A stretch of 64,000 nucleotides of DNA from Patescibacteria group bacterium (GCA_016861265.1 BOLA01000001.1:598229-662228), one strand, 5' to 3'. Shown: positions 25,290-64,000, counted from the first letter of the stretch. Numbers and translations: made by a program. The notes: generated from the letters alone by a model not told the origin.

Positions 25290-25913
25290 TCAAATATTGT
25301 AATTTGGCTTACTAAATAAAGAGAATCTTGTTATAGGCCAGTACCTGGCAATAACCCTACCTTTTATCCAGTCCTTATTTATAAGTCCAATCTCGGAATA
25401 TCTAGAATCCAGACTATCCATTCTATTATCACCTAGAACAAAATATCGTCCCTCAGGAATTAGGATTTCTTCACCACTATTTAATGCAAAATCCCCTCCC
25501 ACTGTGTAAACATTATTAATATATTCTTCTTCTAGTAGACTTCCATTAACAAAAATATGTCCATTGTGAATTGAAATTCTTTCTCCTGGCATACCTACTA
25601 TTCTTTTTACAAAATCTTTGTGACCTGGTTTTTGAAAAACCACAATATCTCCTCGTGAGTACTGCAGACCCAGCCTATCGCTTATTTGGTTAAGAATCTT
25701 ATCAATTTTATCTGTGATTATTAAATCGCTGTTTATTAGATTAGGAATCATGGAATCTCCTTCTATTTGGTTAGGAGCTGCAACGAAAATATAGAAGAAG
25801 GTACATAAAACTAATACAAATCCAGCAGTCCTAAAGAAGTCGTAAACTTCCAGCGGAAGTTTTAGTCCGTATATATTTACGACTTCTTCTGTTTTGTATT
25901 GTTCATTTTCCAT
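25290..25913 (-). CDS. lepB: signal peptidase I
   Basis: Catalytic Ser box (EGDSMIPNL), Lys box (KRIVGMPGE) and GDNRMDSLDSR. Confidence 0.85.
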   Translation of the reverse strand: MENEQYKTEEVVNIYGLKLPLEVYDFFRTAGFVLVLCTFFYIFVAAPNQIEGDSMIPNLINSDLIITDKIDKILNQISDRLGLQYSRGDIVVFQKPGHKDFVKRIVGMPGERISIHNGHIFVNGSLLEEEYINNVYTVGGDFALNSGEEILIPEGRYFVLGDNRMDSLDSRYSEIGLINKDWIKGRVIARYWPITRFSLFSKPNYNI

Positions 25914-36312: not shown

Positions 36313-36354
36313 ATTTTAATGAAATATATTTCTAATTTTATAGAATAGTTGGTA

Positions 36355-40341: not shown

Positions 40342-40372
40342 AAAGTCCCGTTTTGCCAACGGGACTTTTTTT
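40342..40372. terminator. bidirectional terminator (AGTCCCGTT-TTGCC-AACGGGACT-TTTTTT) shared by lexA and the downstream minus-strand dsbB-like gene
   Basis: 9-bp stem plus T-run, with an A-run on the other side. Confidence 0.7.
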
Positions 40373-40823
40373 ATTTCTTCCAAAATTGCAATCTAGATCT
40401 CTTTGTTGATGCAACAATAATTACAATGATTGTTGTAAAAGCAAGCAGGGATAAAAATGGAATAGTTATAAAACCGAGATAGTTGATGTCTATTACGTCG
40501 CAAGGTTTAGCAGTAGAGGTGCAGGCAGAGAACTCCTTAAATAGCCCAAAAGTTTGCAATAGATAGTGATAAATCGCAAATATAAATCCTGGCACAGCTA
40601 TTGCTAATACATGGAGTTTTTGTAGTCTAGTTTTGAAAACAAGGCTAATTAAAGTTAATGCGAATAGTGGGTACATAAATATTCTTTGCCACCAACACAA
40701 ATAACAAGGCTCTATCAATAGAATATCGCTAAAATATAGACTTCCTAGTACAGCTGAGAAGGAAATTAAAAAGATAAAAACTATATAGTTTTTATCTAGA
40801 AACCTTTGGATTTTACTAATCAT
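40371..40823 (-). CDS. disulfide-bond formation protein B-like (DsbB/BdbC family)
   Basis: Four TM segments. CxxC in the first loop (EPCYLCWWQRI) and a second Cys pair in the second loop (ACTSTAKPCD). Confidence 0.7.
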   Translation of the reverse strand: MISKIQRFLDKNYIVFIFLISFSAVLGSLYFSDILLIEPCYLCWWQRIFMYPLFALTLISLVFKTRLQKLHVLAIAVPGFIFAIYHYLLQTFGLFKEFSACTSTAKPCDVIDINYLGFITIPFLSLLAFTTIIVIIVASTKRSRLQFWKK

Positions 40824-43928: not shown

Positions 43929-44002
43929 AAAGGGCATCTTTAATTTTATTAAAGGTGCCCTTTTTTGTTATCATTGATGTGCATCTAAATTTAATACAAC
44001 AT

Positions 44003-48986: not shown

Positions 48987-49001
48987 ATTAATTTTAATAA
49001 A

Positions 49002-51146
49002 GTGTCGATTTCGTCATCCGAAAAAATTTTTATTGACCCTAGGGAGGAAATAACCTTTATTGTTGAACGTCTTTTAAAGGCGGAAAAAGACAGGGTTATT
49101 CTTGTCGTTCCTCAAAATTCCTTGCTACTAAGTAGTTTAGTTAGTATAGATATTCTTTTTAGAAAATTAGTTAGAACAAAGAAACTTGCGATTATTGTCA
49201 CAGAAGATGAATATGGTAAGTCTATTGCCTCTAAAGCAGGATTTGTAGTAGTAGATAAAGTAAGTCAGATTACAAATGAGCAGTGGAACCTAGGAAATAA
49301 CCGAAAAATTTCCATAAAAGAAATCTTAGACGAGAGAAAGAAGGCTTTGTTGGCCAATATTAGTGGTGAAAGTCATGACATAGAAGAGCTGCCTGAAATT
49401 CCAGGTACCGAAGATATAGAAGAGTATCAGGTTACGGAGCAGGAAATGGACGAAGTTGTAACGAAAAGTGTGGGATTGCCATACGAAGAGGTTTTAGAGA
49501 AGAAAGAAGAGATTCTTGATGAAGTAGAAGATGCAGTGGAGTTGGTTAATAATCAAACTGATGTAATAGAAGAATCACCTGTGGTACCTGAGGTGCCAAC
49601 TGCGGAAGATTTAGAAAAACAGGAACTAGAATCTTCTCTAAAAAAGTACGCAAAGCCAAGAAGAGAGGTTAAGGAAGTTGAATTAGACGGTATAAAGCTT
49701 GTGTCTGGCGGTGATATAAAGAGTTACATTGATTCTAAAGAAAGTGCTAAAATGGCAGATAGTAACAATTCTTTCACTCAAATGACAGACATAAATATAG
49801 ATAGAAAAATTAAAAAGGTGGGCTCTTCGTCCTTTACAGGAAAAGACTTTACAAAAAAAGTAACAGACAAAGGTGGTCTCGGGGCTCTGTTTTCGAGATT
49901 TAGCTTGAAACGAAGAAACCCGGATTTTAGAGACGAAAATGACTTTATAAAAAAAAAGAATAGAAAAAAAATTCTAATTACTACTTTTGTATTATTTATT
50001 CTATTGTTCGCTGTAGGAGGCTATGTGTTAGCGTTTCAGGTATCAACAGTAGATATTACTTTAACATTAAGAGCGCAAGATGTAAGCACATCTGCAACTG
50101 TATTGTTAAGCACTAGTGCGGAAGAACTCAGTCTGGAGAGTCCAATTACAATTCCTGCAAAGGAATATTCAATACCAGCCGATAATTTAAGTATTTCTAA
50201 GACCGGGACTGCTGATGGCAATAGTAAGAGAGGCGCTAAAGCAAAAGGGGTCGTAACAATTTATAATCTTACAGCTGAAAGTGTTACATTGGGAGCGGGA
50301 ACAAAGTTTAAAAATGTTACAAATGGATTAATTTATGTTTCCACAACTGAAGTTGTATTAGATCCGGCTACTGTCAGTTCAAATATTAAAACTCCAAGCA
50401 CTAAAGATAATGTTGCACTAGAGGCTGAAAATTTTGGACCTCAATTTAACATCGAAGTTTCTGATAAAACAAGATTCAGCATTGAAAGTTATAGTACAGA
50501 GGAAGAAATGAGTGCAACTGCATTCCAATCATTTCAGGGGGGAACTGAAGAGGCATTTACATCTGTCTCGCAAGAGAATTACGATAAATTAAAAGAAACA
50601 ATTGTACCGGATTTAAAGAAACAAGGGTTAGACAGGTTAAAATCCCTAACCGAGAGTGGATACCAGTTAATTGAAGGTACAGTTACATACGATGAAACAA
50701 AAACCCCTGAGTCTTTGCCAAAGGTTGGAGAAGAGGCAAAAGATAAGACTTTTAATTTAACAGTTCAGATAGGTATTAAGGGACTTGCAGTTAAAACGAG
50801 TGATCTAACAGAAGCTGTCAGTGCTGTTTTAAAGAATAATGCTCAGAATACGAATGGTGGAAATCTTCAGATTGATGACATAATGAATCCGCAAATCGAT
50901 AAGGTAGAAAAGAATGGAGATGATTATGTAGTAACTGTTTCTTCTAAAGGTTCGGTTAAAACCCAAATTACTCCTGAGCAAATGAAGAAAGATATATCTG
51001 GATTGACTATTCAACAGGCAAATGATTACTTTAGATTAATCGATTATATTCAGGATTATAGAGTGAATTTTAATCCAGGATTTGTACCTGACAGTATAAA
51101 ACGTGTCCCTTCCGATACATCACGAATTAATATTAAAACAAAATAA
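49002..51146 (+). CDS. bitopic membrane protein (714 aa): cytoplasmic N-terminal domain plus acidic linker, single TM, large extracytoplasmic C-terminal domain
   Basis: GTG start 16 nt after the FtsA/PilM-like gene. TM at about residues 330-352 (ILITTFVLFILLFAVGGYVLAF). No recognisable family. Confidence 0.5.
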   Translation: MSISSSEKIFIDPREEITFIVERLLKAEKDRVILVVPQNSLLLSSLVSIDILFRKLVRTKKLAIIVTEDEYGKSIASKAGFVVVDKVSQITNEQWNLGNNRKISIKEILDERKKALLANISGESHDIEELPEIPGTEDIEEYQVTEQEMDEVVTKSVGLPYEEVLEKKEEILDEVEDAVELVNNQTDVIEESPVVPEVPTAEDLEKQELESSLKKYAKPRREVKEVELDGIKLVSGGDIKSYIDSKESAKMADSNNSFTQMTDINIDRKIKKVGSSSFTGKDFTKKVTDKGGLGALFSRFSLKRRNPDFRDENDFIKKKNRKKILITTFVLFILLFAVGGYVLAFQVSTVDITLTLRAQDVSTSATVLLSTSAEELSLESPITIPAKEYSIPADNLSISKTGTADGNSKRGAKAKGVVTIYNLTAESVTLGAGTKFKNVTNGLIYVSTTEVVLDPATVSSNIKTPSTKDNVALEAENFGPQFNIEVSDKTRFSIESYSTEEEMSATAFQSFQGGTEEAFTSVSQENYDKLKETIVPDLKKQGLDRLKSLTESGYQLIEGTVTYDETKTPESLPKVGEEAKDKTFNLTVQIGIKGLAVKTSDLTEAVSAVLKNNAQNTNGGNLQIDDIMNPQIDKVEKNGDDYVVTVSSKGSVKTQITPEQMKKDISGLTIQQANDYFRLIDYIQDYRVNFNPGFVPDSIKRVPSDTSRINIKTK

Positions 51147-53294: not shown

Positions 53295-53323
53295 AAAGCC
53301 AGCCGTAAGGCTGGCTTTTTTTA
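53295..53323 (+). terminator. rho-independent terminator (AAAGCCAGCC-GTAA-GGCTGGCTTT-TTTTT)
   Basis: Perfect 10-bp stem, GNRA loop, long U-tract after groEL. Confidence 0.8.
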
Positions 53324-53382: not shown

Positions 53383-53709
53383 ATGAGTAACTTACTTTTT
53401 GTCTTTTACTGGTGGTACGTAATACTAGTAAAAGAATTCTGGCGAAGCTATGTATTGGGTAGATTAGTTTATAACTTGAATCTAACAAATACTTTGCCCA
53501 TGGCAAAGCATATATCGGATCCATTGTTCCAGGACGATTCCGGTATCGGCAAATCTTTCGGTTTTATTATTAGATTTATTTGGATAGGAATTGGATCTTC
53601 TATTAGTGTAATCGTAACAGTTCCCTTCTTCATTTTTGGAATATTTTTATTGGTATTGCCCTTATTACCGTTAATACAATTAGTTACATACTTAAATACA
53701 TTATTATGA
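53383..53709 (+). CDS. small polytopic membrane protein, 4-nt overlap with (likely translationally coupled to) the Clp-like ATPase
   Basis: Three hydrophobic helices. ATGA overlap with the next start. Confidence 0.4.
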   Translation: MSNLLFVFYWWYVILVKEFWRSYVLGRLVYNLNLTNTLPMAKHISDPLFQDDSGIGKSFGFIIRFIWIGIGSSISVIVTVPFFIFGIFLLVLPLLPLIQLVTYLNTLL

Positions 53710-56285
53710 ACGGTAAGGTACTACTAGCAAAATACAAAAATTCAAGAATATTCGTAGACTTTGGTTCACTTACATTCTTTAAGGGAGATAAACATGCTCT
53801 TTACAAACTTGAACAGAATACAGGAACCTTATTAGAAATATTTACAGCACTTCTTTTTGGAATACCCATTGTTATTCAAATCTTGAATGGAGAACTTAAT
53901 CTCTTGAATTTTTTGATACCCGATAATCTACTAAACTATTTGCCGTATATAGGTATCTACACATTTATTTTTGCAAGATTTTTAAAGCGAGATAGGAATA
54001 AATTCGATGAGGCGGTGAAAAACTATAATTTGCTTGCTGTAAATAAGAAAATTGAAGCGGGTGCTGACATGGAACTTACTGTAAATCACTACATTGACTT
54101 TGAAACACTTACAATATTAGATAAAGCTTTGGCAGATAAGGAAAGAGCTTTTATAGTTACATTATGTAAACTACTAACAGAAGATACAGAAATTGAACAC
54201 TTCTTAGCAAACAGATTAGGTATTAATAGAGATAAGTTTATAGAAGTTGTAAACCATAATAGTCACAATGCAAATTTCACACTAAATAATGCTTATAGAA
54301 CTTTATTTCTTTACTTGTTCGATGAAGCCCTAAAGCTTGAATCTAATACTATTAATAAGTTCGTATTATTCTTTGTTTTAAATAAATACTTTTTGAAAAA
54401 TATTTATTTTGACCTAGGTGTAGCAGAATTGGAATTAGAGGGTTTGAGAATTTGGTTTAAGAATGAAACAAAACAAAGAGAGTACTATATTAAGTGGGAA
54501 AGACTATCAAAATTCAAACCAAAAGGAGATGTTAATAGGGCATACACATCTAGACCTACACCAGTATTAGATGAGTATGCGGAAGATTTAACAAGTCAGG
54601 CTGCACTTGGTTTATTCATGTTGTCCGTGGGCAAGGATCAAGAATTGAATAGGGTTGTAGAAATTATGGAAAGAGACAAGGCGAGTGCATGTATGATTCT
54701 CGGAGATCCGGGCGTTGGAAAAACCAGATTCTTAAGGCATTTAGCAACAAGAATGGTTGTGGAAGATATTCCAGGTAGACTCTATGATCACAGATTGTTA
54801 TCCATTGATTTAAATAAAATCCTTACTAAAATTGGTACAGTTGATTCGTTTAAGCAGGTTCTTCAGAGAATTTTTGAAGAGGTTCGTTACTCAGGAAATG
54901 TGATTCTAGTACTTGAAGAATTTAGTCAAATACTTAACATAAGAGAAGAATCGAAACTGGAGGTTGTTAATTTGATTGTAAATGCAATAAATAATTTAAA
55001 CCTAAGATTAATTGCTACTTCTAATAATTCAAGTTATTCAAAATATGTTAAACCGTTAAAATCACTTTCCGCGTTGTTCGATGTTGTAGAGCTTAAGGAG
55101 CCATCTTCAAATGTAGCTCTACAAATTCTAATCGATGAGGTTCCAAGAATTGAGAAAAAATACAAAGTGAGTGTAAGGATTAATTCTTTAAAAAGAATTG
55201 TAGAATTTGCACCAAAGTTCGATCAGGACAGAGTAATGCCCGATAAAGGTATAGATCTATTTGAAGAGGCCTGTTTAGCAGCAAAGAATAGAGGGTTAAC
55301 ATTCCTAGATGTGTCAACGGTTGATGAAATTCTTTCTGAAAAAGTAGGTGTAAAAGTAGGTAATTTATCTGAAGGGGAAAGTCATACATTAATGGCTATG
55401 TCGGAACGAATGCATGACAGAGTTATTGGGCAGAATGAGGCTGTAGATGCTGTCGCATCTGCAATTAAAAGATCTCGTTCAGGACTGACAAATACTAAAA
55501 AACCAATTGCGTCATTTTTATTTTATGGACCTACTGGTGTTGGGAAAACAGAAGTGGCTAAAACTTTGGCCGATGTCTACTATGGCAGTGAAAACTTATT
55601 GATCAGACTAGACATGTCGGAATATCAGGAAGATCAAAATCTTAATAGAATTATTGGATATACCGATGACAAAGGCAATTTTATAGGCGGATACTTGACT
55701 GAGTCAGTCAGATCAAGACCTTTCTCGTTGGTGTTGTTGGACGAAATAGAGAAGGCTAATAAAAAGGTCTTAGATCTATTCCTACAAGTTTTAGATGAAG
55801 GTACTTTAACTGATGGTTTAGGTCGAAAGGTAGATTTTACTAATACCATAATAATTATGACTTCAAATGTAGGTTCTGACTTAATTGCGAAAGAAATCTA
55901 CGAAGGTAAAAAATACCACGATGTGGAAAAAGATGTGACAAATAAACTAAGGGAATCTTACAGGATTGAATTTTTAAACAGATTTGATAAATTAATAATG
56001 TTTAGACCGTTATCAAAAATTGAGATTGAGCAGATTGTGATGCTGATGTTGAAAAAAATAGATGATAATTTAATGCAAAAAGGAATTGGTATTTCCTGGA
56101 ATGAGGCAACTTTGGTAGAATTAGCAAACCTTGGTTATAGCGAGATGTTTGGTGCAAGAGAATTAAAAAGAATTGTGCAGGAAAACATAGAGAATAAATT
56201 AGCAGATTTAATAATTCAGGGTAAACTACGAAGCGGTACAGAAGCAGTTTTTAATGGATTAACTGTACAACAAGTGGTAAATTAA
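53706..56285 (+). CDS. Hsp100/Clp-family double AAA+ ATPase (ClpA/ClpC-type, no long M-domain) with an unusual N-terminal region containing hydrophobic segments and Clp_N-like repeats
   Basis: D1: Walker A (MILGDPGVGKTRFLRHLA), EDIPGRLYDHRLLSIDL, NVILVLEEF, PDKGIDLFEEAC. Linker: HDRVIGQNEAVDAVASAIKRSRSGL. D2: FLFYGPTGVGKTEVAKTLA, LIRLDMSEYQED, SLVLLDEIEKANKKVLDLFLQVLDEGTLTDGLGRKVDFTNTIIIMTSNVGS, C-terminal GARELKRIVQ. The N-terminal 280 aa hold two hydrophobic helices and ELTVNHYIDFETLTILDKAL-type Clp_N repeats. No [LIV]G[FL] ClpP-docking tripeptide is visible after the TSNVGS block. Confidence 0.75.
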   Translation: MNGKVLLAKYKNSRIFVDFGSLTFFKGDKHALYKLEQNTGTLLEIFTALLFGIPIVIQILNGELNLLNFLIPDNLLNYLPYIGIYTFIFARFLKRDRNKFDEAVKNYNLLAVNKKIEAGADMELTVNHYIDFETLTILDKALADKERAFIVTLCKLLTEDTEIEHFLANRLGINRDKFIEVVNHNSHNANFTLNNAYRTLFLYLFDEALKLESNTINKFVLFFVLNKYFLKNIYFDLGVAELELEGLRIWFKNETKQREYYIKWERLSKFKPKGDVNRAYTSRPTPVLDEYAEDLTSQAALGLFMLSVGKDQELNRVVEIMERDKASACMILGDPGVGKTRFLRHLATRMVVEDIPGRLYDHRLLSIDLNKILTKIGTVDSFKQVLQRIFEEVRYSGNVILVLEEFSQILNIREESKLEVVNLIVNAINNLNLRLIATSNNSSYSKYVKPLKSLSALFDVVELKEPSSNVALQILIDEVPRIEKKYKVSVRINSLKRIVEFAPKFDQDRVMPDKGIDLFEEACLAAKNRGLTFLDVSTVDEILSEKVGVKVGNLSEGESHTLMAMSERMHDRVIGQNEAVDAVASAIKRSRSGLTNTKKPIASFLFYGPTGVGKTEVAKTLADVYYGSENLLIRLDMSEYQEDQNLNRIIGYTDDKGNFIGGYLTESVRSRPFSLVLLDEIEKANKKVLDLFLQVLDEGTLTDGLGRKVDFTNTIIIMTSNVGSDLIAKEIYEGKKYHDVEKDVTNKLRESYRIEFLNRFDKLIMFRPLSKIEIEQIVMLMLKKIDDNLMQKGIGISWNEATLVELANLGYSEMFGARELKRIVQENIENKLADLIIQGKLRSGTEAVFNGLTVQQVVN

Positions 56286-56304: not shown

Positions 56305-56685
56305 ATGAATAAAAAAAAGTTGATCTCAATAATTGTCTTAGCCCAGAGTGTTTTAATGGCATTGCCAGTAGCAGCTCAAGGACTGACTAATGTTAGTCAG
56401 AATTATGCAATTCCTAACCCTACAAGATACAGTAGTCTGGAAGACATAATTAATGCATTGACTTCGCTAATTAGACCTGTCTTTATTATTACATTTGGTG
56501 CAATGATACTTTATGGAGGATGGGTTAGATTAACATCTCAAGGTAATCCGGATAAAGTTAAGTCAAGCTCGCAAATCATAGTTGCAGCAATTGTAGGTTT
56601 TGCAATTGCAGTGTTTGCACCTACAATTGTTGACTTTGCGGGTAAATTGCTAGGTATTCAAGGTGGATTAATACAGAATCAATAA
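56305..56685 (+). CDS. pilin-like protein paralog 1 (VirB2/TrbC-like topology: signal peptide, two hydrophobic helices joined by a short polar loop)
   Basis: Signal (LISIIVLAQSVLMALPVAAQG). Helix-1 (VFIITFGAMILYGGWVRL), loop (TSQGNPDKVKSSSQ), helix-2 (IIVAAIVGFAIAVFAPTIV). Confidence 0.55.
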   Translation: MNKKKLISIIVLAQSVLMALPVAAQGLTNVSQNYAIPNPTRYSSLEDIINALTSLIRPVFIITFGAMILYGGWVRLTSQGNPDKVKSSSQIIVAAIVGFAIAVFAPTIVDFAGKLLGIQGGLIQNQ

Positions 56686-56686
56686 T

Positions 56687-57298
56687 ATGAAACTAAAAGC
56701 TTTATTATTCATAGTAATTACAATAATCCTTAGTTCGGGTATTAAGTTATCGGCACAGTCTACAGACTGTATAGCCCCATATTTTATCCCTGATGATTGT
56801 AGTGTGCCTTATGTACCTGGTAAATCAGGGGGTTATACTGCAGATTTAAATTGTCAGATCGTTCGAATTACTAAACCTGGAACCGAGGAGGCTAAATGTT
56901 GTCCCAATATTTGTGTAAATGAAAATGGTGATAGGGTAAGTGCCCAGCTTCCGTCCGAAATTACGCAGACCGAGGTATTTGGAACTACTATTAGAATTAA
57001 TCCGGATAATTCAGGGACGATTATAAATATACTGTTTACAACAATATTGGGTCTTGTTTCTGTTTACGCAATTGTGAGAGGTATTTATGTTACTGGAGTA
57101 AAAAGACCAATGGCTATTACACCCGACCAAATCGCGGAAATTAATAAAGAACTTACAAATTTAATAATAGGTGTAGTTATTTGCTGGGGCTTTATAATCT
57201 TAATTCAAGTAGTCGCCAACCTATTAGGAGTAGGTCAGTTAAATAATCTAGATATTTCCGGCGGAGAATCTGGAGGAACAATTATTACTATTAAATAA
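56687..57298 (+). CDS. pilin-like protein paralog 2 with an N-terminal Cys-rich extracytoplasmic module
   Basis: Signal, 7 Cys in the first 80 mature residues, then helix-1 / KRPMAITPDQIAEINKELTN loop / helix-2. Confidence 0.5.
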   Translation: MKLKALLFIVITIILSSGIKLSAQSTDCIAPYFIPDDCSVPYVPGKSGGYTADLNCQIVRITKPGTEEAKCCPNICVNENGDRVSAQLPSEITQTEVFGTTIRINPDNSGTIINILFTTILGLVSVYAIVRGIYVTGVKRPMAITPDQIAEINKELTNLIIGVVICWGFIILIQVVANLLGVGQLNNLDISGGESGGTIITIK

Positions 57299-57858
57299 TG
57301 AAGACTTTATTGCTAACAATAATATTAAGCATATTCTTCTTTGCTCCTGTGTATGCACAAGAAAATTCAGGCGGATTAGCAAATCAGACGGTCACATGCG
57401 TTAACTGTACAATAGATAACAATATTGGGCTAGAGGAAATTAGAGTTCCTGTTTTTGCTAGCTTTATTGATTTCAATACTGAAAATGCGAGCATATTTAG
57501 CTGGGTATCGTTCATCGGAGCTTTAGCTACCGTAGGATTGGTTATTTTCTGGATTTTTCTTCTGGTTAAAGCTGGTGTAAGAGGATTGCAGAGCCAGGGC
57601 AACGCAGATACATTGGCTGAGGCATTTAAACAGGTTCAATCGGTACTTATTGGAGCTGCAATCTCACTGTTCTTCCCCCTAGTACTAAGTATTATAGGTG
57701 TATTCTTTGGAATTGGCACTATCTTTAGTTGGCCTAAAATGTTTCAGTTTTGCGATGAGTCGTCTGGTGTTCAATTTTATTATCAGGCTCTGTTAGCTGA
57801 CGATGTAAAAGGAGATAAGTCAGCCGCAGAGGCTAAATGTAACCCAATAGGAGAATAA
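57298..57858 (+). CDS. pilin-like protein paralog 3 with a Cys-containing C-terminal tail
   Basis: Signal. Helix-1 (VGLVIFWIFLLVKAGVRGL), loop (QSQGNADTLAEAFKQ), helix-2, then a C-terminal tail with 2 Cys. Confidence 0.5.
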   Translation: MKTLLLTIILSIFFFAPVYAQENSGGLANQTVTCVNCTIDNNIGLEEIRVPVFASFIDFNTENASIFSWVSFIGALATVGLVIFWIFLLVKAGVRGLQSQGNADTLAEAFKQVQSVLIGAAISLFFPLVLSIIGVFFGIGTIFSWPKMFQFCDESSGVQFYYQALLADDVKGDKSAAEAKCNPIGE

Positions 57859-57859
57859 T

Positions 57860-58291
57860 ATGAAAAAATTAATATTGCTAACTTTTATAATCGCTTTTTC
57901 GGTATTGCCTTTCAGCATTAAGGCTGCTACTGCTTCAGATGTCTTGCCATGCGATCAGTACGATACATCGGCCTTTGATGCGTGTGGGGATGTTAACGGA
58001 CAAGTTACTGATCTTATAAAGTTCGCTTTGGCAGCAGCTTTCGGAGCAATTATATTATATGGCATTTTCTTGATAATTAAGGCTGCACTTACTATAATTA
58101 GGAGTAATGGTGATCCGGGCCAAGTAGAGGCCGGTACAAATATTATAAGAGGTGTTTATATTGGCATAGGAATCATCTTTATAGGAATAGTAGGGCTTAT
58201 TATTGTTATTGCATTCTTTGGTGCAGGTGGTATATTGAATACAGCAGTAAATACACCAGGTAATACTGTAATACCAATAATTACAAATTAA
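57860..58291 (+). CDS. pilin-like protein paralog 4
   Basis: Signal. Helix-1 (AIILYGIFLIIKAALTIIRS), loop (NGDPGQVEAGTN), helix-2 ending AFFGAGG. Confidence 0.55.
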   Translation: MKKLILLTFIIAFSVLPFSIKAATASDVLPCDQYDTSAFDACGDVNGQVTDLIKFALAAAFGAIILYGIFLIIKAALTIIRSNGDPGQVEAGTNIIRGVYIGIGIIFIGIVGLIIVIAFFGAGGILNTAVNTPGNTVIPIITN

Positions 58292-58317
58292 ATTATTTAT
58301 TTTATTAAAATACTCTT

Positions 58318-58806
58318 ATGTTTAGAAATAAGAAACTTGCAGGAATCATGGTAGGAGCATTTTTATTAGTTGCACCATTGGTTTCTCCATTGTTAACAGT
58401 TCAAGCTCAATCAAGAAACTTGATTTGTACTGTTTTCCCATTTATTAATAGTGTTGGAGCATTTGGAATCAGCTCATTGTGCGGTGATGTTAATGCAACA
58501 AGTACATCTGATACAATCAAAAGTACTTTTAACTTAATTGTGTCTTTAATATTTGTAGCAATAATCATTTTCTCAATCTACGTGATTATTAGAGCTGCAA
58601 TTAAATACATTAGATCAGAAGGAGATCCAGCAAAAATTGAAGAGGCTCAAAAGGCTATCAAGTCGGTGTTTATCGGTATTGCTGCATTATTTGTAGGCTT
58701 AATCGGTATTATCATTATTATTGCATTCTTTGGTGCAGGTGGTGCATTAACTACAAATCAGGTTAATAACCAGGTAAACCCACTATTGAATTCAATCTTG
58801 AATTAA
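58318..58806 (+). CDS. pilin-like protein paralog 5 (closest paralog of no. 4; shares IRSxGDP...AFFGAGG)
   Basis: Signal. Helix-1, loop (IRSEGDPAKIEEAQKAIKS), helix-2 ending AFFGAGGAL. Confidence 0.55.
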   Translation: MFRNKKLAGIMVGAFLLVAPLVSPLLTVQAQSRNLICTVFPFINSVGAFGISSLCGDVNATSTSDTIKSTFNLIVSLIFVAIIIFSIYVIIRAAIKYIRSEGDPAKIEEAQKAIKSVFIGIAALFVGLIGIIIIIAFFGAGGALTTNQVNNQVNPLLNSILN

Positions 58807-58824
58807 GTTAATTAGAATTTTATA

Positions 58825-58851
58825 AAGCCCAGGCCAAGCCTGGGCTTTTCA
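58825..58851 (+). terminator. rho-independent terminator (AAAGCCCAGGC-CAA-GCCTGGGCTTT) closing the five-gene pilin-like operon
   Basis: Perfect 11-bp stem plus a T-rich tail. Confidence 0.7.
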
Positions 58852-58916
58852 TTTCTTCTTGATTAGCCTTAACCTTTAATCTATAGTGTAATAAGTATTA
58901 ATATTAATAATTTCTC

Positions 58917-59810
58917 ATGGGAAAGAATAAAAAACTCCTTTATCTGCTACTCATACTTAATCTGATTTTTGGTCACGTAGCGATTGTTAGTGCACAATTA
59001 CAGTCTTTCGATTTTTCAGGGAATAATGCTGAAAGTTATCAATGTTTTGATAAGGAAACAGGAGAGAACCTAACAGATGAAGATACTGAGCCAAGTGGTG
59101 TTAAATTAAATGTGCAAGGTCCTGATGATTTTGGTAATTTCTATTGTTGTGGGGGCACTAATTCGGGTTATACACCAGTAGGGTTAGATTGCGCTGCGGG
59201 TCAAACAAAGATCATTGCTCAACTAAAACCACCTGCGCTACAGCAAATAGAAGTTTGGTTCGTAAGAATTTTATATGCAATTTGGGGACTTGTAGCATCT
59301 CTATCTTTTCTATTTCTAGTAAAACTTGGTTATGAATATATTATCTCAAGAGGAGATCCTACCAAGATTACTGAAGTTAGAAAGAAGATTGTGAATTACA
59401 TTATTGGTTTTGCACTGGTTTTCCTGGCTGTTCCTATTTTGACTACAGTATTCCGTCTTTTAGGAATAAATACAAATGCGCAATGTTACAACGTAAATAT
59501 GCCAGGGTTTCAATTCTTTTATAGCTCTCTATGTACCGATCCTAAAGGGGTAATTGCAGCAAAATTTGCCTCCAACCCATGTACGGCATTTAATGACGGA
59601 TCAGATCCTGAAGGCATAATCTGTAAAGGAACTGGCTATGAAGGTGTTACGAGAGGTTGTGGAGTTATTAGGGGTATTTATAATATTTCATTAACTTGCG
59701 ATGTTCAAACAGGTGACACTGCAGCAACATGGTGCAAAACCAGAGAACTTACTTTGCCGCTGTTGGGACTCGTTTACTGTGATTCATCCTGTAACCCTAC
59801 AAGGTGTTAA
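58917..59810 (+). CDS. pilin-like protein paralog 6 with Cys-rich N- and C-terminal extracytoplasmic modules
   Basis: Signal. Cys-rich N-module, helix-1 (ILYAIWGLVASLSFLFLVKLGY), loop (ISRGDPTKITEVRKK), helix-2, and a C-terminal domain with about 12 Cys. Confidence 0.5.
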   Translation: MGKNKKLLYLLLILNLIFGHVAIVSAQLQSFDFSGNNAESYQCFDKETGENLTDEDTEPSGVKLNVQGPDDFGNFYCCGGTNSGYTPVGLDCAAGQTKIIAQLKPPALQQIEVWFVRILYAIWGLVASLSFLFLVKLGYEYIISRGDPTKITEVRKKIVNYIIGFALVFLAVPILTTVFRLLGINTNAQCYNVNMPGFQFFYSSLCTDPKGVIAAKFASNPCTAFNDGSDPEGIICKGTGYEGVTRGCGVIRGIYNISLTCDVQTGDTAATWCKTRELTLPLLGLVYCDSSCNPTRC

Positions 59811-59819: not shown

Positions 59820-61316
59820 ATGTTTAGATTTAAATCATTTAAAACTAACGGTTCTGTGATTAACTTTAAGGACTCAAGTCTTAGTCTGGAGTCCTTAAAC
59901 TCATTTCTTGCGAATCTAGAAAATCTATCATTAAATTCAGAAATTGAGTTTAATGTTGAAAATTTAGACGGCACAATTGCAAATTATAAGTTGATTAACG
60001 ATGGAACTATAAAGGCGTATAAAGACAATAAAAGTATTGTTGAAAATGATTTTTATAGGTTAGTCAAAAATAATTTTCATCTTGAATTGACTCCCCAAAT
60101 TATGCAGGCACGAATAGTGCAATACAATTCTCAGATAAGGGAAACGATTAGTAAATTATCTATACCAATTTCGCCTGACTTGGTAAATAAAATCGCCGAG
60201 GCAAAAAATACTATTGAATCTGTAAAAAATTCAATCGAATCCAGCCTAAGTGAGGAACAAAAAGATAAATACTCGAGGCTCACAGAGCTAAATTCAAGAT
60301 TGAATTCGATTCAGAATCAGATAGATTCTTTTCAAGGAAGTAAAAAGAGTAAAGAGGATATTACCACTAATATTAAAAAATATAATACCGATAAATCCAC
60401 TATAAAACAGATGATGGAATCTGTGGGTCTACTTATTAAAACAAGAGATGAATTAAAGCAGAAAGTGCTAAGTTATAACCATTTAATACAAGATGCTGAC
60501 AAGGTTAATCAGCTAAAACAGCAAAAAATGCAATTTCAGAATTCTCAACTCTTTACAAAATCACAGTCTGCAATTAATAGTTCCGAAGATGATTCTGCTA
60601 GCTCAAACTCAAAATTCAAACTTAAACTTAGCATAATTCCTATTTTGTTATTCCTAAATATTGCAATTTCTATTGTAGGCTTTCTTTACTCTTACGATTT
60701 TAACGTTCTAGTCGTAGCGGTAGTATCAACTGTTATCTTAATGACAGCTTATATTGTCTCTAAATTCTTTAGCGATTCATTGGAAGACCTGAATGAAGAT
60801 TCAAGTAGAGCAGAGGTAATTGATATTAAGCAAGAATCAAATCCATTGGCTAAAGAAGACCCAAATGCCCAATTATTCATAAATTCTGCCTGGGTTAATG
60901 CATTAAACAACGAACTGAATGCAGTAGAACAGAATATTCAAAAAAACCTTAATGGAAAAGACTACGAGTCAATAAAGAATGAATTACAACAAATTGAAAA
61001 TTTAATAGTGCAGGAAGAAAAGAAATTAACGGATTTATCCGCTAATTCAATTACTTCGGATGAATACTATAAAAAGAGAAGGGAGGCAGATATTCTTAAA
61101 ATAGAGCGAGAAAATCTTGAATTTGGACTTAAGATTGATTCAAGCCTAAACGACCAGAGAATATCTGCCGAAAAAACATTAAAAGAACTCTTGGACAAGC
61201 AAGCATTTGCCAGTAAGTTGTCTATGAGTTTCCCAGTATTTTTAGTAAAAACGAGTGAAATTCAGCACACAAACATTGATTTATTGAATCAGATAGTACT
61301 AGTTCTGTCCAATTAA
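59820..61316 (+). CDS. bitopic coiled-coil membrane protein (498 aa; TM near residue 280)
   Basis: Long heptad-rich N- and C-terminal regions flanking LSIIPILLFLNIAISIVGFLY...VVAVVSTVILMTAYIV. Confidence 0.45.
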   Translation: MFRFKSFKTNGSVINFKDSSLSLESLNSFLANLENLSLNSEIEFNVENLDGTIANYKLINDGTIKAYKDNKSIVENDFYRLVKNNFHLELTPQIMQARIVQYNSQIRETISKLSIPISPDLVNKIAEAKNTIESVKNSIESSLSEEQKDKYSRLTELNSRLNSIQNQIDSFQGSKKSKEDITTNIKKYNTDKSTIKQMMESVGLLIKTRDELKQKVLSYNHLIQDADKVNQLKQQKMQFQNSQLFTKSQSAINSSEDDSASSNSKFKLKLSIIPILLFLNIAISIVGFLYSYDFNVLVVAVVSTVILMTAYIVSKFFSDSLEDLNEDSSRAEVIDIKQESNPLAKEDPNAQLFINSAWVNALNNELNAVEQNIQKNLNGKDYESIKNELQQIENLIVQEEKKLTDLSANSITSDEYYKKRREADILKIERENLEFGLKIDSSLNDQRISAEKTLKELLDKQAFASKLSMSFPVFLVKTSEIQHTNIDLLNQIVLVLSN

Positions 61317-61330: not shown

Positions 61331-62107
61331 ATGTCTAATAACGCCAATGCAAGCAATAATCAGGAAACTTCAAAGAAAGAGGCGGTATTTCCACAGCCAG
61401 TTTATCCAGGAAGTATGTCAAACCCGTTTAATGGTTATTACTACTATCCCACGAACATGCAACCTCCCAAAAACAATAGAGACTATGTTTCGAAGATGAG
61501 GCTGCAGGAAGCTGATAAGATTGTACCTAAACAATCAGGGCTGCCTTGGTCCTCAATAATACTAAAGCCCAATATCGTTTTCGAAACTCAAGATGCAAAT
61601 GAGAAAGTCTATGTATTGGTAAGAGCACATTGGATAACAAATCTAGGATGGTTTCTAAGGAATTTGTTCATGGCACTTTTGCCGTTTATTGTACTATCTC
61701 TGTTAGAAAATTTTGGAATCAGAATCGATATAAGCTTTATAAGTAATAAGGCATTAACCATTGTAGGACTGTTGTATTATTCGTTTATATTTACAAGTAT
61801 TGTAAGTAACTTCATTGATTGGTATTTTGATCCCTTTATAGTTACTGACCAGCGTATAATGGACTACGACTATAAACCATTCGGTAATTACAGTGTTTCT
61901 GAAGTCTCTCTACAAGATATTCAAGATGTAAAGGAAAGATCTGCGGGGTTACTTGGTGACATTTTTAATTATGGCAATGTATACGTGTACAGTGCAAGCG
62001 ACGCATCTGAAATGATTTGCAAACATGTTCCATCTCCAACAAGAGTTAGAGATATTATTACAGATTTATCTAATGTAGCAAAAACTTATAAATATGATAG
62101 TGTCTGA
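61331..62107 (+). CDS. membrane protein with a bacterial PH-like (bPH_2/YdbS-like) domain
   Basis: Pro/Asn/Tyr-rich N-terminus, two TM helices (LFMALLPFIVLSLL; LTIVGLLYYSFIFTSIV) and a C-terminal region (DWYFDPFIVTDQRIMDYDYKPFG...) typical of the YdbS/DUF304 arrangement. Confidence 0.45.
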   Translation: MSNNANASNNQETSKKEAVFPQPVYPGSMSNPFNGYYYYPTNMQPPKNNRDYVSKMRLQEADKIVPKQSGLPWSSIILKPNIVFETQDANEKVYVLVRAHWITNLGWFLRNLFMALLPFIVLSLLENFGIRIDISFISNKALTIVGLLYYSFIFTSIVSNFIDWYFDPFIVTDQRIMDYDYKPFGNYSVSEVSLQDIQDVKERSAGLLGDIFNYGNVYVYSASDASEMICKHVPSPTRVRDIITDLSNVAKTYKYDSV

Positions 62108-62315
62108 ATTTTTTACACCAGAAATAATAGAATTTATAAAAATAATAGTCATTATTATTGGTTTGGTTCATCTTTTAGCAGGCTTTATATTAGTTTTTCA
62201 GACCTTTAGAATGAACCGAATTATTAAGACTTCAGGCTTTCCTGTATTTAACCTTATTGCAATCGCTTATATTGCAGTTCTTCTAGCTACACTTATTTTG
62301 ATAATTACAGCATAA
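62094..62315 (+). CDS. small two-helix membrane protein, 14-nt overlap with the upstream gene
   Basis: 73 aa, two hydrophobic helices. Confidence 0.3.
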   Translation: MIVSEFFTPEIIEFIKIIVIIIGLVHLLAGFILVFQTFRMNRIIKTSGFPVFNLIAIAYIAVLLATLILIITA

Positions 62316-62371: not shown

Positions 62372-64000
62372 ATGCAATTAAGAGCTGATTTTTTGGTAGG
62401 AAAACAAACCCCTAATTCCTGGTCAGGAGTTTATGGCTTTAAGCCCGATGATTCAATTGAACCACTAGAATTGTTCGCAATTATTAAACTTGCATCGCAA
62501 AGTGATGAAACGGGCCTAGAACCACTTGCGAAAATGTTCCTAGACGAACTTCAGAATTACTTATTTTCAGAGGGTAAAGAAGGTGATTACATAATTAGAT
62601 TAGAGAATGCTGTGTGGAAAATGAAGTCCAAAATGGAGGTTCTTCTATCTTCTGATGAAAGATATTCACAAAATGGTTTAGATATTGAAGTTGCGCTAAC
62701 ACTATTTGACCGAAATTTTTTATACGTAGGAGTTGTAGGCGAAAGCAAAATTTATATTCAAAGAGGAGACAGATTTGTAGAGCTATCAAAGGGTCTAACT
62801 GATGGGAATATGATGGGCTTTCTGAAGACAGGTAGCTTAGAGTTAGAACCTGGTGATAGACTAGCCTTATCCACTAGTTCGGCAGCAGTGGCCGGGGAAG
62901 CCAGTATTGAATCTGCAATAGGTAATCTAAATGTAGACAATTTATCGTCCTTATCAAATTCTGAAGGTGTAGGTATTCTTCTACTTGCCGATGAGAAAGA
63001 TACATGGGCCGAAAAAGCCTTACCAACCCAAGAAGAATTCGTAGAAGAAACTACTGCACAGGAAAATGATGGTTCTGCAAAATATATACCAATTCAAGAA
63101 GAAGATTTTGATGATACACTAGAAACACCTACCGAGGTTGTAGATGAAGGATTAGAGCTTGAGCCTCAAGAAGAGCATTTACCTGTTAATCAAGAAGATA
63201 CTCTTGCAGAAATAGAATCTGTACAGGAGCTAAATACAAATTTAGATAACCCAGAGACTCGGTCTGAATTGCCAGTAGGGAGACAATTTATAAATAACTT
63301 CAGAAACAAACTGGTGACAGGCTTTAACACTGGAAAAACACATATGGGAAATCTAAAGGTTAAAGTTCAAGAAAAAAGAAATGCCCAGGAAAATGAAGAT
63401 ACAGATAATGAACAAAATATTGAAGAAGCCTATGCGAATTCCAAATATGAACAACCTGATGCCTCTGAGCAAAATAAAGCAGTTACAATAATTAAAAATT
63501 TTATTGGCAGTATTAGAAATTTCGCTAACAGCAAGCTAATTCCTTTTTTTAAAAAAAGTAATAAGACTTATATAAAATATCTAAGAGACTTTGTTCTATT
63601 AATTGCGGGTCTACTGAAAAAACTGCTGATTTGGTTTAAAAAAGAATTTATTGGAGGTGGAGTAGACGATAGAAGGGATATTTTTGCAAAGGCTAAAAAA
63701 AGAAAAAGAAACAGGCTAATTCTTGTGGCTCTGGTTGTGGTACTGGGAGTATTAATAATTTCTGCAATAAACAATAGAAATGCGCAGCTGGCAGAAGAAG
63801 CAAGAATTGAAGAAATAAGAACTTCCGTAGATAGTTATAAATCTCAGCTTGATAATCTTGTTAAACAAGCAAACGCCAATCTGGATGACGCTAAAAAGAC
63901 AACTTTATTAGATCAGCTGGACAAATTAAATAATTCTTTAGAAGCTCAGAAGAAGGATGGTATGTATTTAGATAGTATTGCTTCGCAGCAGGACCAGATT
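62372..64000 (+). CDS. PP2C/SpoIIE-like (likely degenerate phosphatase-fold) domain protein with a single TM and an extracytoplasmic coiled-coil region; 3' end beyond the window
   Basis: Uninterrupted reading frame from ATG 62372 to the window end (over 540 codons), absent from the ORF track because no stop lies inside the window. The N-terminal domain has PP2C-like blocks (ALTLFDRNFLYVGVVGESKIYIQRGDRFVELS; GDRLALSTSSAA). An acidic linker, a TM (LILVALVVVLGVLIISAI) and then heptad repeats follow. Confidence 0.5.
   Translation, partial: MQLRADFLVGKQTPNSWSGVYGFKPDDSIEPLELFAIIKLASQSDETGLEPLAKMFLDELQNYLFSEGKEGDYIIRLENAVWKMKSKMEVLLSSDERYSQNGLDIEVALTLFDRNFLYVGVVGESKIYIQRGDRFVELSKGLTDGNMMGFLKTGSLELEPGDRLALSTSSAAVAGEASIESAIGNLNVDNLSSLSNSEGVGILLLADEKDTWAEKALPTQEEFVEETTAQENDGSAKYIPIQEEDFDDTLETPTEVVDEGLELEPQEEHLPVNQEDTLAEIESVQELNTNLDNPETRSELPVGRQFINNFRNKLVTGFNTGKTHMGNLKVKVQEKRNAQENEDTDNEQNIEEAYANSKYEQPDASEQNKAVTIIKNFIGSIRNFANSKLIPFFKKSNKTYIKYLRDFVLLIAGLLKKLLIWFKKEFIGGGVDDRRDIFAKAKKRKRNRLILVALVVVLGVLIISAINNRNAQLAEEARIEEIRTSVDSYKSQLDNLVKQANANLDDAKKTTLLDQLDKLNNSLEAQKKDGMYLDSIASQQDQI

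Follow-up and report, generated by a model that had tools for sequence, protein, structure and literature searches.

Six consecutive ORFs lie on the plus strand at positions 56305 to 59810 of the window, the 64-kb stretch of patescibacterial DNA that was analyzed as a whole, and the coordinates given for them in an earlier note on this DNA are exact. The genes are spaced by -1 to 110 nt and encode the following products:

56305..56685, plus strand: paralog 1 (P1), 126 amino acids (aa); minimal, Cys-free pilin whose sequence is the most conserved; candidate for the major subunit
56687..57298, plus strand: paralog 2 (P2), 203 aa; 6 Cys in an N-terminal module, and a hairpin with a divergent loop
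57298..57858, plus strand: paralog 3 (P3), 186 aa; Cys pair on the N-terminal side and a second pair in a C-terminal WPKMF..C..FYYQ..C tail
57860..58291, plus strand: paralog 4 (P4), 143 aa; single N-terminal Cys pair, with AFFGAGG closing helix 2
58318..58806, plus strand: paralog 5 (P5), 162 aa; single N-terminal Cys pair and the canonical loop RSEGDPAKIEE
58917..59810, plus strand: paralog 6 (P6), 297 aa; N-terminal module with 4 Cys, hairpin, and C-terminal module with 10 Cys (helices and a four-stranded sheet)

Prediction of signal peptides and transmembrane (TM) segments recovered the shared architecture described in the earlier note in all six products, namely, three hydrophobic segments, of which the N-terminal one is signal-like and the other two form long helices on either side of a polar loop. 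The predicted signal-peptidase site is of the form A/Q in five paralogs and SIKA/A in P4. In its AF2 model, P1 forms a hairpin with helices at residues 45 to 76 and 82 to 115, and the model of P6 (pLDDT of 79.6) places them at residues 108 to 143 and 148 to 181. Identities between the hairpin cores of the paralogs range from 17% to 48%, with a mean of 26%, and P4 and P5 are 46% identical. The loop core proposed to be common to the six holds in relaxed form, with SxG[DN][PA] in all paralogs but P2, whereas the strict form [RS]xG[ND]Pxx[VI]xE occurs only in P5 and P6. The Ser and Gly of the loop are invariant in an alignment of 35 relatives. The AFFGAGG of P4 and P5, previously taken as the end of both proteins, terminates helix 2 and is followed by tails of 15 to 20 residues.

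The Cys contents differ from the 7 to about 12 residues that had been assigned to P2, P3, and P6. The actual totals are 0, 7, 4, 2, 2, and 14 for P1 to P6, respectively, and P4 and P5 thus also bear Cys, one pair apiece. The extracytoplasmic Cys numbers are even throughout the paralogs. By predicted topology, which supports the extracellular placement suggested previously, the N- and C-terminal modules with these even Cys numbers would lie outside the cell. Two genes elsewhere in the window may act on these precursors:

25290..25913, minus strand: signal peptidase I (PF10502 Peptidase_S26, 1.8e-37), the expected processor of the six precursors
40371..40823, minus strand: DsbB homologue (PF02600, 3.6e-15) with a CYLC motif, which could oxidize the Cys-rich exterior modules

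Three signals delimit the transcription of the array:

53295..53318, plus strand: intrinsic terminator downstream of groEL (10-bp stem, 6 G-C pairs, T run), the upstream end of unit 1
58824..58848, plus strand: intrinsic terminator after P5 (11-bp stem, 7 G-C pairs), closing unit 1
58859..58887, plus strand: promoter-like TTGATT-17-TATAGT for unit 2, a consensus match only

The junctions between P1 and P5 measure 1, -1, 1, and 26 nt. Unit 1 is predicted to comprise a small TM protein, a ClpB-like ATPase, and P1 to P5, and unit 2 is predicted to comprise P6 and further membrane proteins, in agreement with the strong terminator and separate sixth gene noted before. The window was compared with loci of relatives (L002, L003, and so on) in the candidate phyla radiation (CPR). 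Its relatives are Ca. Dojkabacteria, and it is assigned to the chromosome of an ultra-small bacterium of this lineage. The unit-separating terminator is kept in four of the six relatives compared, where a hairpin with other stem sequences stands at the position after P5 (L002, L003, L007, and L005, with none in L004 and L022). The promoter-like site recurs with identical hexamers and spacing in the intergenic regions of L002 and L003.

Family membership and fold

The assignment of the array to the VirB2/TrbC class of helical hairpins, by way of the Pfam family T4SS_pilin, was supported. P1, P5, and P6 matched the Pfam family PF18895 (T4SS_pilin) with 34.4, 27.7, and 38.0 bits, respectively, all above the gathering threshold of 26.6 bits, while P2 (20.2 bits) and P3 (12.7 bits) remained below it and P4 had no Pfam match. 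The architecture of PF18895, with a signal peptide, two hydrophobic helices, and a short polar loop, is present in all six. A profile built from P1 and 34 outside proteins (A3) recovered each of the six and nothing else among the ORFs of the 64 kb, with E values from 1.4e-44 to 1.7e-5 (P5, 1.4e-44; P4, 2.4e-34; P3, 4.5e-27; P2, 1.7e-5). P2 was also matched at an E value of 5.2e-22 by the profile A2, which was built with P2 included. Among 35 relatives of P1, 26 matched PF18895, and 3 matched TrbC/VirB2 (PF04956; best E value of 5.5e-6), against which P1 itself gave an E value of 0.048 and 14.3 bits (cutoff, 27.9). In addition, 24 of the 35 matched the Mycoplasma integrative and conjugative element (ICE) pilin-like family NF045849 (best E value of 4.8e-9), as did P2 and P5 weakly, all under the curated cutoff of 40 bits. 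P6 has 102 relatives, some of which are labeled "pilin [Ca. Dojkabacteria]." The family is large (11,246 clusters at 50% identity), and some of its members elsewhere are "poly-pilins," in which three to seven diverged hairpins are fused in a single protein with linkers of 3 to 16 residues.

VirB2-like pilin arrays of Patescibacteria have been described previously, with 441 arrays of 2 to 11 genes sharing ~25% identity (Quinonero-Coronel et al. 2025, PMC12102498). They are defined by at least two pilin genes in tandem or one non-pilin gene apart with low identity, a description that the six genes fit, and by a patescibacterial host genome with VirB4 (PMC12102498). In Ca. Southlakia epibionticum ML1, the six-gene array SEML1_0014-0019 is located in a type IV secretion system (T4SS) cluster, and each of its six pilins is individually essential (Wang et al. 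2023, PMC10633639; PMC12857230).

No solved pilin was matched at the sequence level by the family profile. The predicted fold is that of a solved conjugative pilin, and the best structural match is the subunit of a genuine extracellular filament. This match, together with the matches of some relatives to TrbC/VirB2, a filament-subunit family, argues against an unlikely alternative in which the hairpins stay in the membrane as the ring or channel lining (c-ring-like) of a single-membrane T4SS translocon and only the Cys-rich modules protrude. Such an arrangement would suit the Gram-positive-type T4SSs, which have no known pili (PMC12102498), and the short linkers of the poly-pilins, which fit a fixed side-by-side bundle. 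One ML1 pilin is annotated by structure as "F1F0 ATP synthase subunit C," and filaments formed by these pilins have so far not been seen in any patescibacterium, with only the "possibility" being discussed (PMC12857230). The large folded exterior modules and their fast-evolving surfaces suit exposed display at least equally.

Conservation of the array and its neighborhood

The paralogs have 1:1 orthologues in relatives, where their order is kept. Orthologue scores are 83 to 174 bits, and scores between paralogs are 20 to 47 bits, with the exception of P4 and P5 (92 bits). P2 has its own orthologues in L004 and L009, as does P3 (134 and 124 bits, respectively). The array consists of exactly six genes in L002, L003, L004, L007, and L022, and the orthologous types hold their order even where the ClpB-like protein is only 36% to 51% identical. 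Because of these ordered 1:1 orthologues, the six paralog types are, as judged from sequence comparison, old and not freshly diversifying. The P5 hairpin core is 98% identical to that of L002. The fastest-evolving part is the pair of exterior modules of P6, which are 65% to 66% identical to those of L002, compared with 95% for the hairpin core. Seven Cys are invariant among 45 P6 orthologues. The proposal of variable tip modules in the earlier note thus holds only in part, since the P6 exterior modules outpace the hairpins but the types themselves are old, with their orthologues in fixed order.

These data bear on whether the six could be interchangeable alternative major pilins, used one at a time or mixed to evade recognition or match hosts, an idea drawn from Bartonella and Anaplasma and proposed in a published discussion (PMC12102498). 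The low identity between the paralogs and the rapid divergence of the P6 exterior modules between close relatives would be consistent with it. However, each type has its own ordered orthologue across the divergence of the ClpB-like protein, the copy number is six in five relatives, the architectures differ systematically between types, and the individual essentiality of the ML1 pilins means that they are not redundant, all of which makes interchangeability very improbable.

The genes flanking the array are as follows:

53383..53709, plus strand: small membrane protein, 108 aa, with hydrophobic segments; first gene of unit 1, its end overlapping the ClpB-like start by 4 nt
53706..56285, plus strand: membrane-anchored ClpB/ClpA-like double AAA+ ATPase, 859 aa; Pfam AAA_2 (2.4e-49), ClpB_D2-small, AAA, and AAA_lid_9
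59820..61316, plus strand: coiled-coil protein, 498 aa, with a central TM pair; in one predicted transcript with P6, orthologues after P6 in L002, L003, L007, L004, and L022
61331..62107, plus strand: membrane protein, 258 aa, with a putative bacterial PH-like domain; bPH_3 at 22.2 bits, below the cutoff of 23; syntenic in relatives
62094..62315, plus strand: two-TM protein, 73 aa, DUF5657-like; PF18901 at 20.8 bits, below the cutoff of 25; syntenic in relatives
62372..64000, plus strand: N-terminal part of a membrane protein of ~800 to 850 aa, running off the window; orthologous to L022:15288-17699 (E value of 2e-65) and to an 850-aa ORF of L002

Neither the small membrane protein nor the 498-aa protein had a match in Pfam or NCBIfam (for the latter, no significant one). 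Orthologues of the former lie directly 5' of the ClpB-like gene in L002 to L009, L012, and L022. The ATPase has an N-terminal membrane anchor (TM segment at residues 42 to 60), and no Clp_N domain was found by Pfam. Its NCBIfam scores were 466 bits for ClpB (cutoff, 1232), 417 for ClpA (993), and 390 for ClpV (885), and by sequence it resembles a Clp/Hsp100 double-ring ATPase outside these named families.

The array starts directly after this pair in 10 of 13 CPR loci, one of which (L013) has RecA in place of GroEL upstream, so that the Clp-like neighbor pointed out earlier is a conserved one. A very low probability is assigned to the reading that the array, the co-transcribed ATPase, and the small partner form a self-contained apparatus in which the ATPase extracts or recycles the hairpins without a T4SS. 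Its appeal lies in the near-contiguous genes of the ATPase pair and P1 to P5 between two terminators, in the recurrence of the pairing, including L013 with its other upstream genes, and in the lack by eye of a ClpP-docking IGF/IGL tripeptide, which suggests that the ATPase may be a stand-alone unfoldase. However, L010 and L011 carry the pair without adjoining pilins, around other arrays this kind of ATPase is missing at distances of up to 10 kb, and the likely ML1 counterparts (SEML1_0701/0700, orthologous by architecture only) are ~650 kb from the pilins and nonessential, whereas the pilins are essential. Moreover, an AAA+ unfoldase pulls toward the cytoplasm, the wrong direction for export, and plain conserved gene order suffices to explain a block that also includes GroES/EL and SmpB.

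No Pfam match to VirB4, VirB6, VirD4, VirB3, or PrgI was found in the 64-kb window, which confirms, for the window itself, the reported absence of VirB4, VirB6, and VirD4. For VirD4, this absence probably reflects where the window ends. In four syntenic relatives (L022, L025, L003, and L007), a VirD4/TraG-like coupling-protein gene lies 6.1 to 8.5 kb downstream of P6; the orthologues of the ~800- to 850-aa protein are followed by SmpB, a ~190-aa gene, and this gene, and synteny predicts a VirD4-like gene ~2 kb past the end of the window. In a relative, the 10 kb after the coupling-protein gene also yielded no VirB4, VirB6, VirB3, or PrgI. The 64 kb thus contain no T4SS cluster with VirB4, VirB3, and VirB6 alongside, and because these genes and PrgI are found neither there nor near a relative's coupling protein, the T4SS link in this genome rests on family membership and the literature. 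virB4 is close to pilins in only 1135 of 1948 assemblies, and the unlinked state is common (PMC12102498). According to the literature, VirB4 is present in two Dojkabacteria assemblies and the lineage is counted among T4SS carriers; VirB4 is presumably encoded elsewhere in the Dojkabacteria genome.

Proposed role and relationship to known systems

The six genes are probably a chromosomal VirB2-like T4SS_pilin paralog array, of a type typical of Patescibacteria, and would be part of the monoderm-type (MPF-FATA-related) T4SS of these bacteria. By analogy with VirB2/TraA biology and from the sequences, the precursors would enter the membrane through the Sec pathway, and signal peptidase I would cleave them after the A of the A/Q site, which would leave a two-helix hairpin in the membrane with both ends outside and the S-x-G-D/N-P loop in the cytoplasm. 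The exterior modules of P2 to P6 would then be locked by disulfides from the DsbB pathway, as the even Cys counts, the invariant Cys of P6, and the DsbB homologue suggest. A VirB4-class ATPase from elsewhere in the genome may extract the hairpins from the membrane to form one pilus- or stalk-like structure of several subunit types. Such subunits would be non-interchangeable, given the ordered 1:1 orthologues, the six genes fixed in five relatives, and the fused diverged hairpins elsewhere. P1, as the unadorned subunit, would make up the bulk, surface modules contacting the host cell would be provided by P2, P3, and P6, and the structure may serve a host-dependent (epibiotic) lifestyle.

The idea of a new kind of surface apparatus was not borne out, since this array type is already published in Patescibacteria (PMC12102498) and essential in ML1. 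The find is real, and the array is mainly a further example of a known system. Like the patescibacterial and ML1 arrays, it is a chromosomal tandem array of six divergent signal-peptide and hairpin proteins of PF18895 in the same phylum, with no relaxase nearby. However, the ML1 array lies beside VirB4 and VirB6 inside its T4SS cluster, whereas the array in the window follows GroEL, the small TM protein, and the ClpB-like ATPase, and the 64 kb contain no T4SS core gene. The Cys-rich exterior modules (up to 14 Cys), the two-unit split, and the 1:1 paralog conservation are without mention in the cited literature on patescibacterial arrays. Nor does that literature mention the ClpB-like neighborhood, the even Cys counts together with DsbB, the fast-evolving P6 exterior modules, or the poly-pilins.

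The VirB2/TrbC/TraA pilins of Gram-negative T4SSs (PF04956) share the cleaved signal, two hydrophobic helices, polar loop, and small size, and both of their termini are expected outside, a site for the display of add-ons. They differ in that sequence similarity is marginal, the host of the array has a single membrane, and one major pilin is used there instead of many paralogs with large Cys-rich extensions. The pilin of the Aeropyrum pernix Ced/conjugation-type pilus (PDB 8dfu) is likewise placed in the monoderm/archaeal branch of machines related to T4SSs, but it is a single pilin from another domain of life with only 13% identity and no sequence-level match. The Mbov_0395 family (NF045849) of Mycoplasma ICEs likewise comes from wall-less/monoderm hosts with an MPF-FATA-type T4SS, but there one gene is carried by a mobile element, in place of a chromosomal array. 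The VirB2 arrays of Bartonella and Anaplasma are also tandemly amplified, divergent, and linked to host interaction (PMC12102498). However, their pilins are thought to be interchangeable, whereas the types in the window are anciently fixed, distinct in architecture, and apparently nonredundant.

The six pilin-type paralogs and their family

Six consecutive open reading frames (ORFs) lie on the plus strand at 56305-59810 and encode proteins P1 to P6 of 126, 203, 186, 143, 162, and 297 amino acids (aa). Each contains three hydrophobic segments, one N-terminal and signal-like and two forming long helices separated by a short polar loop (the helical hairpin). A signal peptidase I site is predicted between A and Q in five precursors and after SIKA, before A, in P4, and a signal peptidase I gene is present in the window:

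25290-25913, signal peptidase I gene

In a Pfam search, P1, P5, and P6 matched T4SS_pilin (PF18895) above the threshold, P2 and P3 matched it below the threshold, and P4 had no match. A family profile built from P1 and 34 outside proteins matched all six (E values from 1.4e-44 to 1.7e-5) and no other ORF of the 64-kb window; therefore, the six-paralog observation is real and far beyond chance. These ORFs, hydrophobic segments, and profile matches uphold the description of a six-paralog array in the earlier note, and the PF18895 and profile results uphold its assignment to a VirB2/TrbC-like family, with several corrections of detail. Instead of the 7 to about 12 Cys given for P2, P3, and P6, the counts for P1 to P6 are 0, 7, 4, 2, 2, and 14, and AFFGAGG, taken to be a protein end, in fact closes helix 2. 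The loop motif in its strict form is found in P5 and P6 and not in the other four, and its S-x-G portion is invariant in 35 relatives.

The match of P1 to TrbC in Pfam is marginal (E value of 0.048). Among 35 P1 relatives, PF18895 was matched by 26, TrbC by 3 (best E value, 5.5e-6), and NF045849, a pilin-like conjugal transfer protein of Mycoplasma integrative and conjugative elements (ICEs), by 24 (best E value, 4.8e-9). The family comprises 11,246 clusters at an E value of ≤1e-3, and its profile retrieved no solved pilin, nor any other meaningful match, from all PDB sequences. The nearest named relatives are the Mollicutes ICE protein and an archaeal pilin. Since both sit in the monoderm/archaeal branch, in which patescibacterial VirB4 has also been placed, the pilin is suggested to have arrived with a monoderm/archaeal-type system and not from Gram-negative type IV secretion systems (T4SSs), which is a lead rather than proof.

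Operon layout and conserved neighborhood

The array is divided between two putative transcription units:

53295-53318, terminator after groEL, preceding the unit with the small transmembrane (TM) protein, the ClpB-like ATPase, and P1 to P5
58824-58848, strong hairpin with a T-rich tail, ending the first unit
58859-58887, promoter-like TTGATT-17-TATAGT upstream of P6

The claim that a strong terminator closes the first five genes was confirmed, and P6 is predicted to open a second unit. The gene of the 108-aa membrane protein overlaps the start of the 859-aa ClpB-like ATPase gene by 4 nt, and the gaps from ClpB-like/P1 through P4/P5 are 19, 1, -1, 1, and 26 nt. Downstream of P6, at spacings of 9 to 14 nt, are genes for a 498-aa coiled-coil membrane protein, a bPH-like membrane protein, and a DUF5657-like protein, followed by a large ORF continuing past the window end. 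The terminator at 58824-58848 appears to be functional; the P5-P6 spacers of four related loci (L002, L003, L007, and L005) have a hairpin at the equivalent position with entirely different stem sequences. No hairpin was found in the P5-P6 spacers of L004 and L022, which are only 22 to 34 nt long. A promoter-like stretch, CTTGATw...CTTTAATCTATAGTGTA, is conserved 3' of the hairpin in the window (58807-58916) and in the spacers of L002, L003, L007, and L005.

Relatives of the ClpB-like ATPase were found at 92, 79, 73, 51, 41, and 36% identity in metagenome-assembled genomes mostly labeled Ca. Dojkabacteria, and several of the 102 P6 relatives carry the NCBI name 'pilin [Candidatus Dojkabacteria bacterium]'. 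An exact look-up of the ClpB-like protein had no match in public assemblies, and that of P6 matched a 2.2-kb contig only. The G+C content of the window is uniform at about 35%, and the neighbors are housekeeping genes (GroES/EL, YidC, L25, FtsA/Z, sigma-70, and tmRNA). The host replicon of the array is a patescibacterial chromosome; an origin from a mobile element or plasmid is ruled out by the uniform composition and the order-conserved housekeeping neighbors.

Order of the conserved block in relatives
1, PilM-like protein
2, 714-aa protein
3, GroES
4, GroEL
5, small TM protein
6, ClpB-like ATPase
7, pilin array
8, 498-aa protein
9, SpoIID (some relatives only)
10, bPH-like protein
11, DUF5657-like protein
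12, ~800- to 850-aa protein
13, SmpB
14, ~190-aa protein
15, ~810-aa ATPase

The ~810-aa ATPase contains an N-terminal DUF8128 domain and TrwB_AAD_bind, T4SS-DNA_transf, TraG-D_C, and DUF87 domains in Pfam and is named 'TraM recognition domain-containing protein' or 'type IV secretion system DNA-binding domain-containing protein' by NCBI; it is a VirD4/TraG-like coupling protein. Its gene occupies a fixed syntenic position in four relatives (L003:22165-, L007:22365-, L022:18858-, and L025:10001-12445), starting 6.1 to 6.2 kb past P6 in L003 and L007 and 8.1 to 8.5 kb past it in L022 and L025. An orthologue of the relatives' ~800-aa gene (E value of 2e-65) forms the final ORF of the window, and the coupling-protein gene is therefore predicted at ~65.9 to 66.0 kb, ~2 kb beyond the window. 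Of the canonical T4SS just outside the window, a possibility raised in the earlier note, only this one component is predicted, and no VirB4 was found within 10 kb after the coupling-protein gene in L025. Coupling-protein homologues are numerous in Patescibacteria, mostly distant from virB4, and nonessential in the cultured relative Ca. Southlakia epibionticum ML1. This neighbor is suggestive and is not a canonical T4SS next door.

Other features of the window were observed. A second actin-like ATPase matching FtsA and PilM_2, distinct from the true FtsA (8701-9987), is followed by a 714-aa single-pass membrane protein (47763-51146), and the two genes keep their place before groES in every Dojkabacteria relative. 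In OY969472.1, groEL and the small TM gene are separated by an additional gene of 199 aa (L004:8966-9565), ClpP/serine-protease-like by eye, which has no counterpart in the window. A 1,658-aa protein with Laminin_G_3, purple-acid-phosphatase-N, and fn3 domains (31336-38643) resembles a large surface protein or adhesin, and a fused MacB-type ABC ATPase-permease comes next. Seven successive signal-peptide-bearing or unannotated proteins at 14662-20412 include an M23 peptidase (16371-17759) and a CHAP-domain protein (19204-19842), cell-wall hydrolases of the type adjoining virB4 in ML1, and no ATPase. The first ~100 nt of the listed YidC ORF (43826-44887, TTG start) lie within the tmRNA gene (43477-43928), and the real YidC start is probably farther downstream. 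HEPN and nucleotidyltransferase domains, usually separate halves of a toxin-antitoxin pair, are fused in a single 295-aa protein (13707-14594).

The ClpB-like ATPase has two AAA+ modules and a membrane anchor, lacks Clp_N, and scores far under the ClpB, ClpA, and ClpV cutoffs; neither it nor the small membrane protein has an existing family name. When a pilin HMM was scanned over all of the retrieved loci, arrays of 4 to 9 pilin genes were found directly 3' of the ClpB-like gene in L002 to L009, L013, and L022/23. No pilin ORF was detected in L010, L011, or L012 or alongside the fetched ordinary ClpBs of other phyla; L012 is uninformative because its contig stops ~300 bp past the ClpB-like gene. 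In L013, the order of small TM gene, ClpB-like gene, and array is kept despite different upstream genes (RecA), a hint of something beyond inherited order. Two observations speak against a functional tie: L010 and L011 have the ATPase and small TM pair but no pilins, and the likely ML1 counterpart by architecture (SEML1_0701/0700) lies ~650 kb from the pilins and is nonessential by Tn-seq, whereas the ML1 pilins are essential. A machine dedicated to the ATPase and the pilins is considered unlikely. A two-gene module consisting of a ~105- to 133-aa membrane protein overlapping the start of an anchored ClpB-like ATPase without Clp_N is widespread in CPR genomes.

Paralog types, exterior modules, and poly-pilins

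Each of P1 to P6 best matches its own orthologue, with the order kept, in L004 (ClpB-like ATPase 51% identical), with scores of 104, 109, 134, 83, 124, and 174 bits, respectively; between-paralog scores are 20 to 47 bits, except for P4-P5 (92 bits). Exactly six array genes with a matching size pattern are found in L002, L003, L004, L007, and L022, and more distant arrays retain the P1, P3, P4/5, and P6 types, with Cys-rich members added or enlarged. The one-to-one conservation of the paralog types and the essentiality of each ML1 pilin argue for non-redundant subunits of one structure rather than interchangeable variants.

Extracytoplasmic Cys are always even in number (6 in P2, 2+2 in P3, 2 each in P4 and P5, and 4+10 in P6), and the only leftover Cys lies within a helix of P2, where L002 has Ser. 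Seven Cys of P6 are invariant in 45 orthologues. A DsbB homologue is encoded in the window:

40371-40823, DsbB homologue with a CYLC motif

The ClpB-like ATPase shares 92% identity with that of L002; in the same comparison, identity is 85 to 98% for the hairpin cores but only 65 to 66% for the P6 modules. The P6 C-terminal module was modeled by AF2 as a helix and four strands (pLDDT, 80 to 94), and a Foldseek search with the P6 model gave no credible PDB match for its Cys-rich modules. The Cys-rich modules are plausibly disulfide-locked, host-facing domains. The P3 tail (57738-57858) and P6 (59480-59540) share, immediately past helix 2, a Cys, an aromatic run (FQFFY/QFYYQ), and a second Cys (or Leu), conserved in the orthologues of L004, L005, L009, and L013. 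The first members of more distant arrays (L005:12553-13749 and L013:12490-15607) are very large, at 398, 492, and 553 aa, with long Cys-rich N-terminal domains followed by a single C-terminal hairpin; the added exterior domains can thus be much larger than the pilin core itself.

Many of the top family matches are poly-pilins, in which a single signal peptide is followed by 3 to 7 tandem T4SS_pilin helix-loop-helix repeats in one protein; at least three hairpins were found in 47 of the 140 new matches among the 150 listed. Examples are as follows:

P0103, P0104, and P0105, proteins
L024:1777-3435, ORF
L027:76-1743, ORF
L028:10001-11821, ORF

The hairpins of a poly-pilin are mutually 21 to 66% identical, a divergence equal to that of separate paralogs, and are joined by linkers of 3 to 16 residues; the genes are located within ordinary pilin arrays. 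A gene-calling artifact of an alternative genetic code was ruled out, as reading the 552-aa L024 ORF with code 11 gives no stop before its end. Diverged hairpins are fused by short linkers, and therefore different hairpins can work covalently side by side; this supports hetero-oligomeric packing of hairpins and lends weight to the bolder reading given below.

Relationship to published pilin arrays

Much of the bacterial diversity that has not been cultured belongs to Patescibacteria, which live on other microbes by attachment. Using PF18895 and PF04956 on 3,035 Patescibacteria genomes, Quinonero-Coronel et al. (2025; PMC12102498) described 441 'VirB2 arrays' of 2 to 11 pilin genes each, which on average share 25% identity; pilins adjoined virB4 in only 1,135 of 1,948 VirB4-positive assemblies with pilins. 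The T4SS cluster of ML1 holds six PF18895 pilins (SEML1_0014-0019), all essential by Tn-seq (Wang et al., 2023; PMC10633639). Two Dojkabacteria assemblies are VirB4 positive in the available part of the published table, and the preprint lists Dojkabacteria among T4SS-bearing lineages. A pilin array unlinked to virB4 is itself common, and an eight-gene array among gyrA, L19, and similar genes likewise had no VirB4 within 10 kb. Given the 441 published arrays and that of ML1, the array studied here is a further case of a described kind, and the proposal of a new, T4SS-independent surface apparatus is unsupported. We consider it likely that the six genes form a T4SS pilin array of the patescibacterial type, in which each paralog is a subunit of its own and some bear disulfide-rich host-contact modules.

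The sole genetically tractable patescibacterium cannot do without its T4SS and pilin array, and this locus provides a well-resolved array of a class that has no cultured member. Here the different pilin types prove to be ancient, each conserved in its own right, and some have quickly evolving disulfide-rich exterior domains. The ATPase linkage, ancient paralog types, even-Cys modules, and poly-pilins are not mentioned in the cited Patescibacteria T4SS and pilin papers. The antiquity of the pilin types and the quickly evolving exterior domains narrow the models, favoring a multi-subunit structure with host-facing modules over interchangeable variants, and offer targets for structure prediction, metaproteomics, and imaging, with P1 as the putative bulk subunit and P6 as the host-contact candidate.

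A bolder and rather doubtful reading is that P1 to P6 are fixed, non-interchangeable parts of a hetero-oligomeric stalk or ring with a set order and proportion. The same assembly would be built in other lineages from poly-pilins, as 3 to 7 diverged hairpins on linkers of 3 to 16 residues, and in Dojkabacteria it would be serviced by the ClpB-like ATPase and its small partner, which might, for example, clear or recycle membrane hairpins. If so, the array would encode a pilin-derived cell-contact organelle of its own architecture. A classical conjugative pilus is built from one subunit, whereas the proposed hetero-oligomeric hairpin assembly would contain several subunit types.
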